Sequence record: PQ471460.1
Source: Escherichia phage vB_EcoM_JE01
Direction: 5' to 3' (one strand)
Length of the DNA stretch: 64,000 nucleotides
The notes below the pieces were generated by a model. It was not told the origin of the DNA, made no database searches, and saw only the letters and a list, made by a program, of their open reading frames with translations. Positions 9,298 through 59,797 of this stretch are shown one piece after another. Position 1 is the first letter of the stretch, and each line of letters begins with the position of its first letter. Position numbers and translations under genes: made by a program.

Positions 9298-12200
9298 TTA
9301 TTCAACCCATTCAAATTTAACCGTTTTATTCACTGGGTCAGGAACAATGCGAACATTACCAATTCGTAAGAAATCACGAATAGTAAGATTACCCATTATA
9401 GCATTATCAGATGGTAAAGCACCAATATCAGATGGCTGAGGAGGGTTACCCCCATCAAATACCTGAACAAAACTTGACCAAGAGTTTTTGGTTTTCTGCC
9501 ATGTGCGCGTCCAGCGAGTGGTACGTGCTTCTGGCGTCGTTGGATAAGTAATCCAATCTTGGTAAAGCGAATCAAGTGTATTACCAAACTGAGTCAATGT
9601 ACCAGGAGATTTAACTTCTTCGCCACGTTCTAAGTATGGAAGTCCAGTCACTTCATTAGTTTTTTCAACCATTTTAAAATAACCCGGGAACTGGTTATAA
9701 GTGGCTGAATCGTTAATATCGATTGACCAGAATCCGACAGTATCAGATGTTGGTGCGCGGGTATATAAATCAGATGTTTTAGTGCCCTGAGAACGAATTC
9801 TCGAGTTAACAGTCAAACCGCCTGAATTTATAGTAGCACCTTTGGCAATAATTAAGCTTTCGCCAATCGTTACTTGGCCAGATGCATTATTAATAGCTAA
9901 AGGACGTAATCCATTAAATCCACCAGTCTGATCACCTGATGCAGTAAACATAAAATTCGTTACTGATCCATCATTGCGAACAATGAAACCATAATTTCCG
10001 TTAATAGCACGGAAAGCATTTGCACTTCGAGAAATAATTTCACCAGTTGCAGTGACTGAATTACCAAATGTTGCTACACCATTTGCATTCAATGTTCCTG
10101 AAGCATTAACATTTATAGGTGTTACTGTACCATTGATATTAAATGTTATATTTCCAGCTTTATTGCGCTGAGAATAAAAGTGATTAGACGTTTCATCACC
10201 AACTTCAAATACAGTCGAACGTGTTGTATCTGATTCCCCACTAAATTGATTACCCCACACTCTAATAGTCACCGTCTGTGCTTGGTTAGTTCCAGTTTGA
10301 GGTCCTTTCTCAAAAATCAGATGAGTTTCTGTTCCAGTATTAGAAATAGTTAGTACACTATTTGCCGAAACTGAACCACCAAACGTAGCAGTACTAGATG
10401 ATACAAGAGGGGCACTCAGATTCGTTTGTTGGGTTAAGGTTAGTGAACCATTAACCGTCTGCGCAATGTCCCTACGAATGAACTGAGATGAATCTAGACC
10501 ATCCAATAAATTACTATCTACAGCTTTTGCTTTTAATGGCAAATAATTTGCTAATACACGGTTTAATTCATATGGTGATACTGCATAACTATTTTTCTCA
10601 TACAGTTCTAAATCTTGGGTAGAACCGACTGTATCATTACCAACGAATGTAATTGAACCAGATGAAGTTTTAACAAAACCTCTTATCGCAGTAGTAGCTG
10701 CCCAGGTAGGTTCACTCTGCACAATCCATTTTAAATTTTTTGGAGATACAGCAGTATTTGCTGACGTTCCAGTCACAGTTTCAGACTGAGTTGCAACTTT
10801 AATAACACCTTCTTGTGCTTCAGTAGATTTAGTACCTAAAAGCTTTTTAGGAGTTATTAAAACATTATCTAATGTTCCTGTAGCAGCTTCGACTTGTGTA
10901 GCTACACGAAGTGTACCACGCTGTGTCTCATTTGCTTCAAGAATATTAAGGGTATAATGGTCCCAGAGAGTTCCTGATTCAACTAATCCAGATAGAGCAA
11001 CAACAGAAGTACGATCAGTACTATTAAATCTGGTTTTAATTTTTAATGGTGTAGAGATACGAGTATCGTCGACGCCTGCGTCGAATTCAACCTGTGTAGC
11101 AATTTCAGCTATACCACTTAAACTTTCAGTTGCTCTACGGTCATTTAAAGTTTTAGGAGTGACTGCACGAGTATAATCAGTTCCTGTATTAACTTCGCTT
11201 TGCGTAGCAATTTCAATTAAACCAATTCTTCCATCAGTTGATGTCTTTTTATGTAACGTTTCTGGCGTTACAACCGCATTTGCCCATCCTTCCTGACTTT
11301 GTCCAGCAATTACTTCACTTTCAACTGCTAAAATTACTGCACCTTGTTGGGTTGGAGTAGCTTTATACTGATCCAAAGCTTTAGGTGAAACAACTAAATT
11401 ATCAGTGTTTTTATTATAAACATTCGTACCATTTAATTCACGGCTAGAAGCTGGAGTAGCACCTGCAGTAGATACAAAGGTTACAATACCAGATAATGAT
11501 TCAGAACCTTGACGAGCTTGAAGCTTTTTAGGAGTGATGATTGTAGTATCATCGGTTCCTGCATTAGTTTCTTGCTGCGTAGCAATTTCAGCAACACCTC
11601 TGCGAGTTTCAGTAGCTGTTCTTTCATTCAGCTTTTTAGGAGTGATGATAATATCATCAGCAAAAGAGAATGTAGTATCCTGGTTAACTTGAGCAGTTGT
11701 TGCTATTCTTGCGATACCTCTACGAGTTTCTGTAGCAGTACGGTTAGCTAACGTTTCTGGAGTAATTGCCAATTCTTTTTGTGGAGAATTTTCTAAATCA
11801 GCATTAGCTTGAGCTTGTGTAGCTAAAGCAATTACGCCTAATCTTGCTCTAGTAGAATCATTTAAAGAATCTACTCTTTCTACGGTTGGAACGTTTTGCT
11901 GTACAACCCAATATTTTCCATCAGAATCTTCTATATAAGCAAGCTCCAAAACTGGAACATAATTAGTTTCACCGTTAAAAACTAATTCTTGAACTGTTAC
12001 CCATTCAGCTTCAGGCGGATATTCTGAGCGTTTTGGGAATTGCAACAATTGAACTGAAGAAGCAATTTTATCTTCACCTGCAGCTTTGATTTTAACTGTT
12101 TGTCCTTTTCTCATGTAATTCATGGAAATTTTGACAGTATCACCAACAGAAATATCAGTCGGAAGCTGAAGTTCAATTGTTTGGGTTGTTCCATTATTCG

Positions 12201-13167
12201 CGCCAAATACCATGACTTCTTCATTTGGACGAATATTAGAATTAGTTGTTATAATGCGTAAACGTGCTTTACTATCCCCGTCAAACAATCTCCACAATTT
12301 CTCATTATCATCAAACATCAAGAAACCGTCAATCGATGTACGGCCTTCAATGGAATGAGTTCCAACTTCTTGTACTGAAGTTGTTTCATCATATGTAGTA
12401 ACAATTGTGTGATAAAGAGGATTTAATTTATCCAAATCAACGAAATTAATAATATCGCCATGATTGGCAAATCTTGGAAGTTTAATATTAATTGCTGATG
12501 CAGAAGTAAATCTACGTACGATAAAATCGTTTGATTGCGCCTGATAGAGACTCGCAGGCGTTACAACTACAGCTTCTCTGCTATAATCAGCAACGTACAT
12601 TTGCCACAGACGATTACTAAAAATTAAAACTATCTGTGATTTTGGATGAGTCATTAGTACTGATCGTACTTGCTGACCTCTAAAATTTACAATGCTTTGT
12701 ACCGGAGCTGTAATTAAAACTTGATTAACTCCAGGTTTTCCTCCAATATCTTGGAGAACGATAGTATCACCGTCAATTGGGGTAGATGGTAAAGTAAATG
12801 TAATGTCATTACCAGCTGCAGTATCAACTGAAATTGATTCGCCTGATTTTAATTGATAAGGTCCTGATGAAACAGTTGTCCAGTTTGCATCAGTACGTAA
12901 TGCTCTCCAGCGTACGCTATTAAAAGCTCCTGCTGGTTTTGGAATATCATTTATAGCAGCCCAAAAGCGGTTATCATAAATGATTACAAAATCTTTTAAA
13001 TATCCACGAGTTGGATCGTATTGTTGAACTGTGTTTTCTTGAATTAAGTAATCAACGTTGACACCGTCAGTTCCTACGGTACGATCAGCTAAAGCTACGT
13101 TGATTATTTTATCGCCACCTGCGTCCAGACCGTCTTCTGCTCTGAACTTTCTTTTAATCTCGGCCAT
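9298..13167 (-). CDS. 34: gp34 long tail fibre proximal subunit
   Basis: 1289 aa, same length as T4 gp34. Confidence 0.9.
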   Translation of the reverse strand: MAEIKRKFRAEDGLDAGGDKIINVALADRTVGTDGVNVDYLIQENTVQQYDPTRGYLKDFVIIYDNRFWAAINDIPKPAGAFNSVRWRALRTDANWTTVSSGPYQLKSGESISVDTAAGNDITFTLPSTPIDGDTIVLQDIGGKPGVNQVLITAPVQSIVNFRGQQVRSVLMTHPKSQIVLIFSNRLWQMYVADYSREAVVVTPASLYQAQSNDFIVRRFTSASAINIKLPRFANHGDIINFVDLDKLNPLYHTIVTTYDETTSVQEVGTHSIEGRTSIDGFLMFDDNEKLWRLFDGDSKARLRIITTNSNIRPNEEVMVFGANNGTTQTIELQLPTDISVGDTVKISMNYMRKGQTVKIKAAGEDKIASSVQLLQFPKRSEYPPEAEWVTVQELVFNGETNYVPVLELAYIEDSDGKYWVVQQNVPTVERVDSLNDSTRARLGVIALATQAQANADLENSPQKELAITPETLANRTATETRRGIARIATTAQVNQDTTFSFADDIIITPKKLNERTATETRRGVAEIATQQETNAGTDDTTIITPKKLQARQGSESLSGIVTFVSTAGATPASSRELNGTNVYNKNTDNLVVSPKALDQYKATPTQQGAVILAVESEVIAGQSQEGWANAVVTPETLHKKTSTDGRIGLIEIATQSEVNTGTDYTRAVTPKTLNDRRATESLSGIAEIATQVEFDAGVDDTRISTPLKIKTRFNSTDRTSVVALSGLVESGTLWDHYTLNILEANETQRGTLRVATQVEAATGTLDNVLITPKKLLGTKSTEAQEGVIKVATQSETVTGTSANTAVSPKNLKWIVQSEPTWAATTAIRGFVKTSSGSITFVGNDTVGSTQDLELYEKNSYAVSPYELNRVLANYLPLKAKAVDSNLLDGLDSSQFIRRDIAQTVNGSLTLTQQTNLSAPLVSSSTATFGGSVSANSVLTISNTGTETHLIFEKGPQTGTNQAQTVTIRVWGNQFSGESDTTRSTVFEVGDETSNHFYSQRNKAGNITFNINGTVTPINVNASGTLNANGVATFGNSVTATGEIISRSANAFRAINGNYGFIVRNDGSVTNFMFTASGDQTGGFNGLRPLAINNASGQVTIGESLIIAKGATINSGGLTVNSRIRSQGTKTSDLYTRAPTSDTVGFWSIDINDSATYNQFPGYFKMVEKTNEVTGLPYLERGEEVKSPGTLTQFGNTLDSLYQDWITYPTTPEARTTRWTRTWQKTKNSWSSFVQVFDGGNPPQPSDIGALPSDNAIMGNLTIRDFLRIGNVRIVPDPVNKTVKFEWVE

Positions 13168-13201: not shown

Positions 13202-13209
13202 TATTTATA
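13202..13209 (-). promoter_or_regulatory. late promoter TATAAATA for gene 34
   Basis: tatttata on + strand, upstream of the gene 34 start at 13167. Confidence 0.6.
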
Positions 13210-13213
13210 CTTG

Positions 13214-13242
13214 TTTACTTTAAGATTTGGATAGTATATAAT
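13214..13242 (+). promoter_or_regulatory. T4 early-type sigma70 promoter upstream of rnh
   Basis: GTTTAC -35, 17 nt spacer, TATAAT -10. Confidence 0.55.
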
Positions 13243-26325: not shown

Positions 26326-26379
26326 GTTTACAAGTCCCTCGTGTTGTGTTATAGTAGACTTACTGACATAACATGAGGA
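26326..26379 (+). promoter_or_regulatory. early promoter plus leader cassette, copy A (upstream of alc)
   Basis: GTTTACAAGTCCCTCGTGTTGTGTTATAGTAGACTTACTGACATAACATGAGGA; 52/54 identical to 42019-42072. Confidence 0.6.
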
Positions 26380-39961: not shown

Positions 39962-42019
39962 ATGGAACTTATTACAGAATTATTTGACGGCGCTTCGGCG
40001 CCGGTTGTTAACTTAAATCCTAAGCATAAAATACCTCAAATTTTTGCTATTCAAGCAGGTGAAGAAAGCGTGCTTCCTGGATTTAGATTTTGTACATACA
40101 CCTCTGGCGGTGATACAAACAAAAACGTTAAGCCAGGCGATAAAATGATGCATATCGTAATGATAGGTGTTAATGAGAAACTATCATTAGTTAAACTTAA
40201 AAACTTGGGTGGAAATCCAATTGGTGTTATTAATGCAGTTTTTGATACTGCTCTTCAAACAATGAAACAGTATAAAATTGACGCATGCCTATTCCGCGTA
40301 CTAAAGAGTAAAACAAACGGTGCAGCTCGTCAAATGCAAGTTATTGCCGACCGTTTAGTACGTACTAAAGGAGCAGGTCGATATGTTCTTTTAAAGGAAA
40401 TCTGGGACTATGATAAGAAATATGCATATATTATGGTTTATCGTAAAAATGCCAATTTAGAAGACATTCCAGGTGTACCTCCTATTTCAACTGAGTTATT
40501 CACAAAGGTTGAATCAAAGGTTGGTGATGTTTATGTAGATGTTAAAACAGGTAATGCTGTTCCTAAAGCTGTTGCTGTTGCTGCTTCTATTGCTTTAGAA
40601 AATGATAAGCGCACGGATCAAGCTGTAATTCAAAAAACTAAAATTAGTCGTCGATTAGCAGCACAAGCTCAATATTCTACTGTCGATGCTTCACTTCAGG
40701 GTGATAGCTTCGCTGCTAAGAAATACCAAGAGTTTGAATCTAAAGTTCCGGTATATAAAGCAGAAGGACCAATGAACTCCGGCGTTATTCAGGTTGGTTC
40801 AAACTTCAGCAAAGGAGCTATCGGTGGTATGAGAAGTGCTTCTCGTTTTAAATCTAATGATTATGAACTAGAAAGCTTCCGAAATCATATTGCATTGGCT
40901 CATGCACGTTTACGTGATCCATCTATCAAGTTACAGAGCGATATAACATATCAAGGTTCTCAAGAATATTTAAAGAATAAAGAATTTTTTGATTATAAAA
41001 CTGATAAAATTTTAAGCGATCTTGCTGACATTAATATTTCTAATAGCTTTGATGTTATTAAGAAAATCGTCAATGATTTAGTTAAAGGTTCTAAAGCCAC
41101 GCCAGATGAAAAGGTAGCTATTGTTCAATTTGTCATGAATGGCGTGTATAAATTGATTAATGAGTCTGCTTCTCAAGCGTATGAATATGCAAGTACTGAA
41201 GTACCCCCAAAAGGATTAACTCAGGCTGAGTCTGATGTAATTGAAGATTATTGTGCAGATTCATATGTTGAAATGAACTCGTTCCTTTTAGGTAAACCGG
41301 ATTCTACCCGTGAAGAATATATGGAACGAGCTATTAAACACATCGAGACAATGGATTCTGCCTTTGCCAAAGGATCAGTTCTTCCTCCAGGAACTACACT
41401 TTACCGTGGGCAAGAAGTTACTTTTAAAACTTTACGTCATAATATTGAAAATAAAATGTTCTATTTCAAGAACTTCGTATCCACATCGCTTAAACCAAAT
41501 ATCTTCGGTGAGTATGGTAAAAACTATATGGCTCTAGATGATTCCAGTACAGTATTTTCTGGTGAAGGAGAAGGTTCAGTTGATGCTGAAGATTTAATGC
41601 ATATGGGTAGTCACTCTGCTTATGCGAATGAAGATGCTGAAACTAGCGTAGGTATGGTAATTAAAGGGGCTGAGCGAATTAAAGTTATCGTTCCAGGTCA
41701 TTTATCAGGATTTCCATCAGAAGCTGAAGTTATTTTACCACGTGGAATTTTGCTGAAGATTAATAAAGTGAGTACGTACATGATGAAAGAAACTGCTTAT
41801 AACAAGTATCTAATCGAAGGCACAATCGTTCCTCCTTCTGAACAATTAGAAGAATCGGTATATGATGGCGACCACCTGATGGAAACTGGTGAAGTTCGTC
41901 CAATGACTGGGTTTAATCAATTCCTTGTAGAAGAATCAAAAGAAGAGGAAAACGAAGTTTCTCAAATCTTGGCTTCTTTGATTAACATCAACGGAATGTC
42001 TAAAAAGTTCAAAATGTAG
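39962..42019 (+). CDS. alt: Alt-family ADP-ribosyltransferase paralog 2
   Basis: 685 aa; N-terminus MELITELFDGASAPVVNLNPKHKIPQIF…; R-S-E motif region (LYRGQ…FVSTSL…SEAEVILPRG). Confidence 0.8.
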   Translation: MELITELFDGASAPVVNLNPKHKIPQIFAIQAGEESVLPGFRFCTYTSGGDTNKNVKPGDKMMHIVMIGVNEKLSLVKLKNLGGNPIGVINAVFDTALQTMKQYKIDACLFRVLKSKTNGAARQMQVIADRLVRTKGAGRYVLLKEIWDYDKKYAYIMVYRKNANLEDIPGVPPISTELFTKVESKVGDVYVDVKTGNAVPKAVAVAASIALENDKRTDQAVIQKTKISRRLAAQAQYSTVDASLQGDSFAAKKYQEFESKVPVYKAEGPMNSGVIQVGSNFSKGAIGGMRSASRFKSNDYELESFRNHIALAHARLRDPSIKLQSDITYQGSQEYLKNKEFFDYKTDKILSDLADINISNSFDVIKKIVNDLVKGSKATPDEKVAIVQFVMNGVYKLINESASQAYEYASTEVPPKGLTQAESDVIEDYCADSYVEMNSFLLGKPDSTREEYMERAIKHIETMDSAFAKGSVLPPGTTLYRGQEVTFKTLRHNIENKMFYFKNFVSTSLKPNIFGEYGKNYMALDDSSTVFSGEGEGSVDAEDLMHMGSHSAYANEDAETSVGMVIKGAERIKVIVPGHLSGFPSEAEVILPRGILLKINKVSTYMMKETAYNKYLIEGTIVPPSEQLEESVYDGDHLMETGEVRPMTGFNQFLVEESKEEENEVSQILASLININGMSKKFKM

Positions 42020-42072
42020 TTTACAAGTCCCTCGTGTTGTGTTATAGTAATCTTACTGACATAACATGAGGA
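42019..42072 (+). promoter_or_regulatory. early promoter plus leader cassette, copy B
   Basis: 52/54 identical to 26326-26379. Confidence 0.6.
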
Positions 42073-56500: not shown

Positions 56501-56506
56501 ATAAAA

Positions 56507-56524
56507 AGGGACCTTTCGGTCCCT
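56507..56524. terminator. bidirectional hairpin terminator between rnlB and gene 24
   Basis: AGGGACC-TTTC-GGTCCCT followed by TTGTTTTATT. Confidence 0.65.
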
Positions 56525-56529
56525 TTGTT

Positions 56530-57813
56530 TTATTCATCAACGATAATTTTTGGTAGCTTAACACCCAATAAAACAGACAGATCTGAACGACCCGCCATTT
56601 TATCCATGTCTCCGCCATCAATTATTCTTGCTTCTTTTTCATCTTTTGCTACAGTGTAAGGATTTGCAGATAAAGCATATCTAACTAATAAACCGATAGA
56701 TGGCTGCAAACTTTCTGGATCAACTACAACTTTAAATGCACCTACATGTTCAGGGTCATCTAAGTCAAGACCTTCTGTATACGGAGCATAGAAAATTGAT
56801 CCAACAATTTCTTTTTCGCCAATATTTTCTACCACGCCAACGATTACATAATCTAATGGGCTGTTAGTATCGCAATAAAGCGGTAAACCATTAGCTAAGA
56901 ACCCGTAGGCATTTTGTGAAAGATATTTATCATCTTCTGGTTTATGTTTTAACCAACCTGATGCAGCAAGAATCGCAGCAGCACGAGCTGAAGCAACACA
57001 GAACGTTGCTGTATAAGTTGATTCTTTTTGGATATGTGAAACCATTTCACATACCATTCGGTATAATGAACGACCGGCTTCAGGTGCAGATGCATAGCTC
57101 AAATCAATGAATCCAGTATCAGTAATTCCTGTAACTTTATATCGTTTTGATACTGTAATCAAAGACTGTAAAATATCTTTATTGATTTCATCCGCCATTT
57201 CAGTTGCAAGCAAATCTTCCAAGAAATTAGGAGCATCGAATCCATTTGCTTCTAAATCTTGTGCCAATTCAACTGTGATGCCAGTTTTAAGTTTACGAGA
57301 TTTAACTGCGGTTTGCCATTTATTAATCTGGAATCTAGCATCCGCAATTTCGCTATCAGAGCTTTCAAATTTGCTCGTTGACGCTGCGTCAGAAAATAGA
57401 CGAACCTTTAAAAGAACAATTGCAATCTGAAGAGCTAATTCTAAATCGCTTTCTTCAATAGTAGCAAATGGTGTATCTTCTAATACTTTATAGACGATAT
57501 TATTGTATTTGAATAAATCGCCTTTATTGAGAGTTAATTTAGACTCTTCTGTTAATTCTGTGATTTGTTCTCGGTCTACATACCCAGCTTCGCCAGCGTA
57601 AGTAGCACCAGTTTTAAAAGTAAATTCGTTATCTGGATTAAGGTATTTGATACCATAAAAAGCAGCAACAGGTTGATTAGTTCTTTGCGTTGCTACAATG
57701 TCAGAATATATTAATTTAGTGGTAGCGCGAGTCAAAGCAACGAGATTTGGGCGACCGATTGAGTTGCTATTCGTTGTGGTTGATTCGCGCAAAAGTTCGT
57801 TGATTTTAGCCAT
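56530..57813 (-). CDS. 24: gp24 capsid vertex protein
   Basis: 427 aa, same length as T4 gp24. Confidence 0.93.
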   Translation of the reverse strand: MAKINELLRESTTTNSNSIGRPNLVALTRATTKLIYSDIVATQRTNQPVAAFYGIKYLNPDNEFTFKTGATYAGEAGYVDREQITELTEESKLTLNKGDLFKYNNIVYKVLEDTPFATIEESDLELALQIAIVLLKVRLFSDAASTSKFESSDSEIADARFQINKWQTAVKSRKLKTGITVELAQDLEANGFDAPNFLEDLLATEMADEINKDILQSLITVSKRYKVTGITDTGFIDLSYASAPEAGRSLYRMVCEMVSHIQKESTYTATFCVASARAAAILAASGWLKHKPEDDKYLSQNAYGFLANGLPLYCDTNSPLDYVIVGVVENIGEKEIVGSIFYAPYTEGLDLDDPEHVGAFKVVVDPESLQPSIGLLVRYALSANPYTVAKDEKEARIIDGGDMDKMAGRSDLSVLLGVKLPKIIVDE

Positions 57814-57841
57814 TGCGCTTTCCTTGTTGAGAGTATATGTT

Positions 57842-57849
57842 TATTTATA
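57842..57849 (-). promoter_or_regulatory. late promoter TATAAATA for gene 24
   Basis: tatttata on + strand about 30 nt upstream of the gene 24 start. Confidence 0.55.
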
Positions 57850-57855
57850 AAAGTT

Positions 57856-57885
57856 GTTTACAGCAAGGTTATCACATGTTACTAT
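57856..57885 (+). promoter_or_regulatory. early-type promoter driving the 23/24 intergenic ORF
   Basis: GTTTAC…18 nt…TACTAT, then GAGGAG SD. Confidence 0.5.
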
Positions 57886-57915
57886 AGACCTATCAAAAAC
57901 ATGAGGAGATTAAAA

Positions 57916-58182
57916 ATGAACAAGTTAAACTTTATTCGTACTACTCTGTCCGCTCTTGATAAAGACATCAAAGCCCTGGTAGAAAAATATGGTTCCAATC
58001 CTAACGGTAATGCAGTGAATGCCCTAGTTAAGAAATATGAAACCATGGCTTATGCTACTGACTTCTGGTGGAACGGTGAATATTCTACCCATACCAAAGA
58101 CAAATCTGGTAACTGGCTGAAAATCCAAGAAAATCGTATTGACTTCCGTGACATCATCAACCGTCGAGTTAAGATTGCGTAG
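57916..58182 (+). CDS. hypothetical 88-aa protein in the 23/24 intergenic slot (moron)
   Basis: ATG 57916 with GAGGAG SD; opposite strand to the flanking head genes. Confidence 0.5.
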   Translation: MNKLNFIRTTLSALDKDIKALVEKYGSNPNGNAVNALVKKYETMAYATDFWWNGEYSTHTKDKSGNWLKIQENRIDFRDIINRRVKIA

Positions 58183-58197
58183 TATAGAAACAAGAAT

Positions 58198-58215
58198 GGG
58201 AGACCGAAGTCTCCC
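58198..58215. terminator. bidirectional hairpin terminator
   Basis: GGGAGAC-CGAA-GTCTCCC. Confidence 0.6.
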
Positions 58216-58231
58216 ATAATAAGGTTATATC

Positions 58232-59797
58232 TTAGATACCTTTAACATATACACGGCGGAAGTAAGCGTTTTTACCAAGGCTATTCAGAATAGAAGGCAT
58301 ACCGCTCTGGATGCGAGAAGCCGGAGCCTGAGCAGCGGATTCTGCAAATGGGTTGATACCGATACCGTAACGAGTTTTGAATCCCATTACTGGTTGGAAG
58401 TTCTTCGGATCGGAACCACGCAGCGGAGTCAGAGCTACATATGGAGCGTAGTAAATACCAGCATCCATTTCGTTCGGACCTTTATAACCTACAGTGAAAT
58501 AATCCTGTTTAGCATACTGGTCGATATATACACGATATTTACCACCCAGAACACCAGCAAATACTGACTTGGTAGTATCAGTGTTAAAGCCGGTAGCCAG
58601 ACCCTGTGCAGCATAAGAAATGCCAGTATCAACTGAAGCCAGAACGTTAACTACGTTACGGGAAGCGATAATGAAGTTACCTTCACCACGACCGGTCTGA
58701 CGAGCAATTTCAACTGCTTCTTTGTCAATCTGGAACAACAGAGCTTTAAAGGATTCACCCGCCCAGCGAGCACCACGAATATCAATCGGATCCTGGAAGT
58801 CAAATACACCAGCTTTAGAACCTGGAGTCAGGGTCATACCAGATTTACCAACCTGAGCTGAGTAGTTAATCCAATCAACAACTTCGCGGTTGATTTCCAG
58901 CATGATTTCGGTAGCTAGAATACCAGACAGTTCAGCATCAGCATCCATACCGTGAACAGCGCGGAGGTCTTGTGCTAATTCGATAGAGTAAGCAGCTTTC
59001 AGCTGGCGAGATTTAGCTTCGATAACTTGTTTATCGATACGGAAGCCCATTTCATTCCATGGGTTATCGGTAGAACCGTTGAAACCTTCCTGAAGTTCAG
59101 CGATAGAAGTAGCCATACCTTCAGCGATTTCTACTAGTACACCAGCTTCCATTTGTTTCTTAATTTCAGCATCTAATTTAGCTGCATCAGTTGCGCTTGC
59201 ACTAATTGTTACTTGAGCAGAAGCCTGCAGATACACAGTACCAGTGTCCTGGAAGAAGTGAGTATAGATATCACCTACTGTGGTTTCTGTGCTAGCAGCC
59301 AGCGCCGGGAATTTCTTAGCAGCACCCTGACCAGAGAACATTGCATCTGGACCATACATTGGGTGGAATGCTTCTTTAGCGCCGGCAGCGATTGGGTCTT
59401 TACCATATACTGCGCGCAGTGCGAATACCTGACCAGTTGGGCTGTTCATCGGCTGAACACCGCAAATATCAAAAGCAATCAGGTTAGGAATAGCACGACG
59501 TACCATACCCATAACAGCTGGGCCAATCTGAGTTACTGCGCCAGAAGTCTGACCAGCAGCGATGTTAGTAGCGTTGTAACCGTGGTCACCACCGATTTCA
59601 GCTTCTGTTAAGAAAGAACCGAACGCCTGAGCGATTTTTTCGTCTTTGTACTCTGGAGCTGTCTGGAAATCTTTTTCCTGGTTTTCAAAGATTTTAGCGA
59701 TAATCGCTTGTTTGCTATTAGCAATTTCCGGTAAACCTTCACCTTCCAGTAATGGCTTCCATTTGTTCAAAAGTTCAGCTTTAGTTTTGATAGTCAT
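58232..59797 (-). CDS. 23: gp23 major capsid protein
   Basis: 521 aa, MTIKTKAELLNKWKPLLEGEGLPEIANSKQAIIAKIFENQEKDFQTAPEYKDEKIAQAFGSFLTEAEIGGDHGYNATNIAAGQTSGAVTQIGPAVMGMVRRAIPNLIAFDICGVQPM…. Confidence 0.97.
   Translation of the reverse strand: MTIKTKAELLNKWKPLLEGEGLPEIANSKQAIIAKIFENQEKDFQTAPEYKDEKIAQAFGSFLTEAEIGGDHGYNATNIAAGQTSGAVTQIGPAVMGMVRRAIPNLIAFDICGVQPMNSPTGQVFALRAVYGKDPIAAGAKEAFHPMYGPDAMFSGQGAAKKFPALAASTETTVGDIYTHFFQDTGTVYLQASAQVTISASATDAAKLDAEIKKQMEAGVLVEIAEGMATSIAELQEGFNGSTDNPWNEMGFRIDKQVIEAKSRQLKAAYSIELAQDLRAVHGMDADAELSGILATEIMLEINREVVDWINYSAQVGKSGMTLTPGSKAGVFDFQDPIDIRGARWAGESFKALLFQIDKEAVEIARQTGRGEGNFIIASRNVVNVLASVDTGISYAAQGLATGFNTDTTKSVFAGVLGGKYRVYIDQYAKQDYFTVGYKGPNEMDAGIYYAPYVALTPLRGSDPKNFQPVMGFKTRYGIGINPFAESAAQAPASRIQSGMPSILNSLGKNAYFRRVYVKGI

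Follow-up and report, generated by a model that had tools for sequence, protein, structure and literature searches.

The 88-amino-acid open reading frame (ORF) that lies between the head genes 23 and 24 of Escherichia phage vB_EcoM_JE01, on the strand opposite to both, is a genuine gene, accessory and dispensable in T-even phages, and belongs to the family PHROG 6003. It was studied within a 64,000-nucleotide stretch of record PQ471460.1, referred to here as the window. The initial annotation, made from the letters of this stretch, had taken the ORF for a genuine gene in a variable slot, and the PHROG match, the substitution pattern, the predicted fold and the comparison of the slot between phages all bear this out. 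As to its function, we lean towards a protein made early that would bind a target in the host or its defences without acting as an enzyme, and that would be useful on some hosts only.

The window comes from a T4-type genome (Tequatrovirus): its genes 23 and 24 are ~96% identical to those of T4 (96.4% at the nucleotide level for gene 23), which places the locus on a Tequatrovirus backbone. Its closest relatives over the locus, at 99.7-99.8% identity, are vB_EcoM-G28, GEP001, EP01 and KIT06. Reading along the window, hoc, 24.3, 24.2 and rnlB on the + strand precede gp24 on the - strand, which is followed by the ORF (+), gp23 (-) and then 22, 21, 68, 67 and 20, all on the - strand. All sequence features that the initial annotation had listed are present where it placed them. 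The locus comprises the following elements:

56505-56526, both strands: bidirectional terminator with the symmetric stem AAAGGGACC/GGTCCCTTT and T-runs on either side.
56530-57813, - strand: gp24, capsid vertex protein, the left flank of the slot (Pfam Gp23, E 2e-97); its counterpart in vB_EcoM-G28, 98.9% identical, is annotated as capsid vertex protein.
57814-58231: the whole intergenic region between genes 23 and 24, a cassette exchanged with JS98-type phages of Dhakavirus.
57849-57842, - strand: late promoter of gene 24, TATAAATA, an exact match to the T4 type and an element of the backbone.
57850-58183, + strand: 334-bp segment absent from empty-slot Tequatroviruses, which holds the ORF together with its ribosome-binding site and early promoter.
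57856-57885, + strand: early-type sigma-70 promoter, with the -35 element GTTTAC at 57856-57861, TG at 57877-57878 and the -10 element TACTAT at 57880-57885.
57903-57908, + strand: Shine-Dalgarno sequence GAGGAG, 7 nt before the ATG at 57916 and conserved in JS10 and PNJ-9.
57916-58182, + strand: the 88-aa ORF, PHROG 6003, with its ATG at 57916 and its stop codon at 58180-58182.
58196-58217, - strand: hairpin GGGAGAC-CGAA-GTCTCCC of the gene 23 intrinsic terminator, with a C(UUCG)G tetraloop and a U-run.
58232-59797, - strand: gp23, major capsid protein, the right flank of the slot (Pfam Gp23, E 3e-121), which like gp24 bears this annotation in near-identical phages.

The ORF is a real gene under purifying selection. 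In the ORF list the frame opens at an upstream ATG (57901, giving 93 aa); all homologues begin with MNK or MTK at the position of 57916, and the GAGGAG ribosome-binding sequence noted earlier precedes this start. The product is a full-length match to PHROG 6003 (E 5.8e-50), residues 1-88 aligning to positions 1-88 of a 90-position profile. By tblastn it occurs in ~237 phage records, and annotated members of the family include JS98 orf173 (EpJS98_gp173) and VR7ORF190c, each a conserved hypothetical protein. The protein shares 98.9% of its amino acids with JS98 orf173, the two genes differing by 1 non-synonymous and 8 synonymous changes, and the comparison with JS10 gives 7.5 and 20.5, respectively. 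Pairwise dN/dS (Nei-Gojobori, unsaturated pairs) is 0.03-0.14, which indicates that selection acts on the protein. The product is a hydrophilic, basic protein of 10.3 kDa (pI 9.6), which AlphaFold2 models with a mean pLDDT of 89.9 from a 9-sequence alignment and 93.9 from an 18-sequence alignment. Both models predict the same helix-helix-beta hairpin-helix topology (H3-25, H31-48, E52-61, E67-71, H77-87). Across 16 relatives, down to 30% identity, M1, K3, F6, N30, G31, N32, A45 and Q71 are invariant, and N35, L14 and L21 are almost so. Could the frame nevertheless be a chance opening in an intergenic region? It is short and has no annotated function anywhere, but its presence in so many phage records, the purifying selection, the confident fold, and the conserved promoter and ribosome-binding signals make this barely credible. 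With regard to codon usage, third-position GC is 42.7% in the ORF, 23.4% in rnlB and 35.8% in gp23, which is odd for a small early gene.

A comparison of the 23-24 region across T-even genomes, as the initial annotation had proposed, revealed four states of the slot: empty, segD, ORF, and ORF with segD. Homology to the empty-slot phage RB27 ends at 57849 and restarts at 58184 (blastn), so that the variable module is made up of exactly three parts: promoter, ribosome-binding site and ORF. RB27 lacks the GTTTAC promoter, and 17 nt separate its gene 24 late promoter from the hairpin. The promoter thus lies inside the insertion and moves together with the ORF. An evenly spaced sample showed an empty slot, with a match 335 bp shorter, in 26 of 30 Tequatrovirus rows; T2 and HY01 also belong to this group. 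T4 and T6 hold segD alone, in the same orientation as the ORF. Some Mosigviruses (PNJ-9, F2, LF82 series) carry both genes, segD beginning 3 nt past the ORF stop, while most carriers have the ORF without segD: Dhakavirus, Gaprivervirus, a Mosigvirus branch at 37% identity, and the window itself. A PHROG 6003 gene on the opposite strand between genes 23 and 24 was found in vB_EcoM-G28, PNJ-9, JS10, Shf125875, VR26 and JS98, and also in MN04, CJ20, vB_YenM_P8 and three metagenomic contigs (L026, L032, L035). Two tandem gp24 paralogues adjoin the slot in Dhakavirus and Gaprivervirus (JS10, VR26, JS98, L026, L032); the window, T4 and the Mosigviruses have a single gp24. In base composition, the insertion (37.7% GC) and the ORF (39.7%) are not distinct from the window (36.2%) and the flanking genes (36.8% in gp24, 45.3% in gp23).

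At the left edge of the module, two promoters stand back to back, as the initial annotation had described: the late promoter of gene 24 at 57842-57849 and the early-type promoter of the ORF at 57856-57885. The late promoter is invariant in 6 of 6 aligned genomes, is present in empty-slot RB27 as well, and is carried as an annotated late promoter in fPS-65. In the early-type promoter, GTTTAC and TACTAT are 18 nt apart (the scan tool counts TTTACA-17-TACTAT with TG), and the transcription start would fall near 57892. Neither the -10 hexamer, TACTAT, nor the spacing of 18 nt (17 by the scan tool) reaches consensus. The promoter belongs to a class, GTTTAC...TGnTAnnnT, that is enriched in the window: GTTTAC-N17-19-TANNNT occurs at 11 sites against 2.75 expected, a count reached in 0 of 100 shuffles. 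All but one of the sites (10 of 11) lie on the + strand, and nearly all carry the TG extension. Moreover, when six genomes representing four genera (Dhaka-, Mosig-, Gapriver- and Tequatrovirus) are aligned, the region upstream of T4 segD included, the positions of the late promoter, TTTACA and the -10 element are kept and the spacer diverges. Conserved hexamers around a freely diverging spacer are the footprint of a functional promoter. The early timing proposed before fits this promoter class, and the ORF is probably expressed early in infection. Two other promoter types for the ORF were considered by eye and dropped: a MotA-type middle promoter, as no good MotA box was found, and a late promoter on the + strand, as TATAAAAG is off-consensus.

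The same layout of a late (-) and an early (+) promoter recurs at 13202-13242, where TATAAATA serves a 1289-aa gp34-like gene (9298-13167, -) and GTTTAC-17-TATAAT an rnh-like gene (from ~13272, +); back-to-back late and early promoters are a normal design of T4 junctions. Elsewhere on the + strand, an identical 30-nt early-promoter-like sequence, GTTTACAAGTCCCTCGTGTTGTGTTATAGT, occurs at 26326-26355 and 42019-42048, ~15.7 kb apart, which suggests a repeated promoter or a duplicated segment.

The right edge of the module required a correction. The initial annotation had given the ORF its own terminator, a hairpin that would also serve gene 23. The hairpin folds at about -16 kcal/mol on either strand (-16.4 on the + strand), but a terminator scan accepts it on the - strand only, where the UUCG loop is followed by UUCUUGUUUCU; on the + strand the tail is AUAAUAAGG, with no U-run. 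The hairpin is kept alike in empty-slot, segD-only and ORF-plus-segD genomes, and its stem shows compensatory changes (GGGAACC/GGTTCCC in T4, GGGACC/GGTCCC in RB27 and VR26). Since it is present in every state of the slot and has its U-run on the - strand only, it is the terminator of gene 23 and lies outside the ORF unit: its role for gene 23 stands, and that for the ORF falls. At the other end, the bidirectional terminator at 56505-56526, between the convergent rnlB and gp24, should stop + strand read-through from rnlB, and the ORF therefore needs a promoter of its own.

The missing U-run on the + strand also means that early transcripts may read into gene 23 in antisense. This would suit a role of the unit at the RNA level, in which the ORF is incidental and what counts is either an early antisense transcript of the gene 23 3' end or the spacing or insulation of the gene 23 terminator from the gene 24 promoter. 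We consider this very unlikely, since the low dN/dS reveals selection on the protein, which is found at 30-40% identity in unrelated genomic contexts and has a strong ribosome-binding site and a confident fold; in addition, phages with an empty slot function without the unit.

Is the unit then a moron? In temperate phages, a moron is a gene that comes with its own promoter and terminator and has been inserted between two genes which are neighbours in related phages. The ORF unit resembles this in being present or absent between two conserved neighbours (RB27, T2 and HY01 being empty), in carrying its predicted promoter inside the insertion and in being exchanged horizontally. It differs in having no terminator of its own, the hairpin being that of gene 23, in a GC content that is not distinctive (39.7% against 36.2% for the window), and in its carrier, a virulent phage, which implies that there is no prophage-expressed function. 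Of the promoter-gene-terminator unit proposed initially, the promoter and the gene thus hold, while the terminator is the backbone's.

The slot had also been described as a place of mobile insertion, and here the comparison is clear. The cassette at 57814-58231 is 94-99% identical in nucleotide sequence to those of JS98 and MN04, while the flanking genes reach 61-77% (gp24) and 79-87% (gp23), a jump which indicates that the cassette has been exchanged between genera. JS98 orf173 has the same slot, strand, promoter and hairpin as the ORF, and differs in its host backbone only, which here is that of a Tequatrovirus. The likely direction is from Dhakavirus (JS98-type) into a minor Tequatrovirus lineage, as all sampled Dhakavirus genomes carry the cassette. 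Tequatrovirus carriers are rare, at 8 of ~500 Tequatrovirus-like records, 2 of the 8 being the same G28 genome.

Two carriers hold broken copies, from which it follows that the ORF is dispensable, as is also seen in the empty slot of most sampled Tequatroviruses. In RB69 (NC_004928, 5292-5532), the gene is split into ORF188c and ORF189c by two frameshifts, which are single-base indels relative to Shf125875; this copy is either a pseudogene or an error in an old sequence. In the Tequatrovirus 310Ecol104PP (L015, 2001-2290), the same cassette has lost 10 bp and, 64 bp further on, carries a tandem duplication of 10 bp; the two changes together truncate the protein to 64 aa. The pseudogenised copies show that selection favours the gene under some conditions only, or just weakly in laboratory lineages.

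Outside the T-even phages, distant relatives at 33-41% identity occur in ABPH49 (Vequintavirinae; L029, 4995-5261) and in metagenomic phage contigs (L025, 4001-4264; L030, 4001-4267; L034, 4001-4264). They match reciprocally, up to E 4e-8, and every one of them matches PHROG 6003; for the divergent relatives P0011, P0013, P0017, P0021 and P0022, this is the only PHROG matched. Around the distant relatives, small ORFs on one strand and without Pfam matches form long arrays, the one in L025 lying near a homologue of T7 gene 0.6; this arrangement is typical of an early accessory region. An IMG/VR scan gave T-even genomes only, and the window itself contains no paralogue of the ORF. Two database labels deserve comment: ABPH49 is labelled an Acinetobacter phage but classified in Vequintavirinae, and P0021, a 90-aa family member on a 173-kb T-even-like contig, bears the JGI name 'NADPH-dependent curcumin reductase CurA', an evident mis-annotation.

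This distribution bears on the possibility that the ORF helps in head assembly, be it in the folding of gp23 or gp24, in vertex assembly or in capsid decoration. Its place within Tevenvirinae, always between genes 23 and 24, would fit such a role, as would the duplicated gp24 beside it in Dhakavirus and Gaprivervirus carriers. However, the gene runs against genes 23 and 24 and its promoter is of the early, not the late, type, and it is absent from most Tequatroviruses, although their gp23 and gp24 are 96-98% identical to those of the window. Considering further that the RB69 copy is broken and that the rV5-like relatives are found in small-ORF arrays, not in head modules, we regard a head-assembly role as quite improbable.

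The closest parallel at the same position is segD. That T4 keeps this homing endonuclease gene in the slot had been stated in the initial annotation, and T4 indeed has it there, in the same opposite-strand orientation. The T4 sequence at 2734-2823 (NC_000866, L007) aligns to window positions 57814-57915. Upstream, the late promoter, the -35 element (ATTTAC in T4), the 18-nt spacer and the TG-extended -10 are homologous; downstream lies the same gene 23 hairpin, and in some Mosigviruses the ORF and segD form one operon. The proteins, in contrast, are unrelated: SegD is a free-standing GIY-YIG homing endonuclease of 223 aa, while the 88-aa ORF protein, for which the lack of this motif had been noted, has no Pfam GIY-YIG match even at E values up to 1, and its profile aligns to SegD with an hhalign probability of 0.7%, that is, no relation. 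The comparison has a consequence for T4 itself. A 2010 review stated that a segD-specific promoter could not be found and that very low expression was to be expected (PMC2988022). The homology suggests a candidate early promoter for T4 segD, composed of ATTTAC, 18 nt and a TG-extended TATTAT. In the supplements of a 2022 time-resolved omics study, segD falls into the early class by its RNA and the middle class by its protein, and intensities are given for the SegD protein (PMC9697503). As T4 segD is classed as early RNA behind a homologous promoter, the ORF promoter family would appear, by this indirect route, to fire early, in keeping with the early timing proposed for the ORF.

Might the ORF, then, be a passenger of the homing endonuclease, spreading by co-conversion next to a segD site, or regulating or protecting for SegD? 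Where both are present (PNJ-9, F2, LF82 series), the two genes are 3 nt apart and share a promoter, the same promoter region drives segD alone in T4 and T6, and the cassette has crossed genus boundaries. Furthermore, a 2026 paper reports that anti-defence loci in T6 are amplified with the help of SegB (PMC13096335). Yet most carriers of the ORF have no segD, including the donor-like JS98 cassette, and in segD-free lineages the ORF is under strong purifying selection. Its rV5-like phage relatives lie in unrelated contexts, and ORF and SegD have no sequence relation. On the whole, we judge a passenger role to be improbable.

What, then, do database searches say about the function of PHROG 6003? 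The homology and structure searches that had been suggested as a check returned full-length membership of this family, and neither a function nor an outside fold. Pfam, NCBIfam and PADLOC gave no significant match to the ORF protein; a Pfam match to DUF5380 (E 0.085) was taken as chance because it was seen for close family members only. No PDB entry scored below E 0.2 in either a sequence or a profile search, and Foldseek with a pLDDT-90 model found nothing in the PDB at E below 2 and a single match in BFVD, itself a PHROG 6003 member, with no outside relative. As there is no fold relative in PDB or BFVD, the structure gives no functional lead. By these searches, the protein has no sequence or fold similarity to any member of a characterised anti-defence or defence family. 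An exhaustive HMMER search of 1.84 billion representatives yielded a handful of true relatives; two of its hits, P0009 (1633 aa) and P0012 (772 aa), were discarded as artefacts, being repeat proteins in which many weak matches sum, and a third, P0010, looks like an assembly chimera. In the literature, a locus-tag search found no paper that mentions RB69ORF188c/189c, EpJS98_gp173 or phrog_6003, the preprint of the accessory-gene screen by Silas et al. makes no mention of JS98, RB69 or gp23, and the text of the PhageExpressionAtlas mentions no carrier genus. Identification as a known ORF with a described function would have spoken against a new host-takeover or anti-defence factor. The ORF is indeed known, being annotated in ~237 records, but as a hypothetical protein; since no function has been described for this annotated family, the proposal of the initial annotation is not overturned, and the ORF is a reasonable candidate for such a role.

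For the binding protein that we favour, we would propose the following course of events. The whole intergenic cassette would have been gained by recombination from a Dhakavirus (JS98-type) donor, and its 334-bp module sits between two backbone signals, the late promoter of gene 24 and the terminator of gene 23, without disturbing either. Host RNA polymerase would transcribe the ORF early from the module's own T4-early-type promoter. Late in infection, this promoter would be off and strong late transcription of genes 23 and 24 would run antisense to the ORF, which together would confine its expression to the early period. The product, modelled as a compact, soluble helix-helix-beta hairpin-helix domain without a catalytic motif, would bind stoichiometrically to some component of the host or of its defences, be it a protein or a nucleic-acid or nucleotide ligand, with K3, F6, N30-G31-N32, N35 and Q71 as its likely contact surface. 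The advantage would be conditional, felt on some hosts only. That the protein acts by binding is argued from its small size and its lack of catalytic motifs; the early promoter class, the invariant polar/aromatic patch, the patchy and mobile distribution, the dispensability and the early-array context in other phages point in the same direction.

Small early anti-defence and host-takeover proteins of T-even phages, such as Acb2/Vs.4, Dmd and AsiA, are the natural point of comparison. The ORF shares with them its size (60-100 aa), an early-type promoter, dispensability, a patchy occurrence and the lack of an enzymatic motif, and differs in that it matches none of them by sequence or fold. A more specific reading, which we consider possible though rather doubtful, is that PHROG 6003 is a new anti-defence family with an unseen fold, for example a small oligomerising sponge or inhibitor whose patch binds an immune nucleotide or a defence protein. 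The invariant K3/F6/NGN-x-x-N/Q71 patch may be the binding site, and such a protein may be expressed early from a self-promoted module that spreads among T-even genera and to rV5-like phages. In a narrower version, it may block an immune sensor of the neighbouring capsid proteins.

Finally, we would like to consider what the locus means for the T-even phages. In public genomes, the ORF already carries the label of a hypothetical protein, and it is an ordinary conserved hypothetical gene, albeit one with good credentials. It holds little to surprise a T4 specialist, and is a well-credentialed candidate for functional screening. The slot supplies natural controls in near-identical backbones, namely an empty slot, the ORF alone, the ORF with segD, and a pseudogenised copy. 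It also illustrates how an early gene can be accommodated within the late structural cluster of a virulent phage, exactly between a terminator and a late promoter. If a host or defence target proves true, PHROG 6003 would enlarge the set of phage counter-measures by a new family with a new fold.
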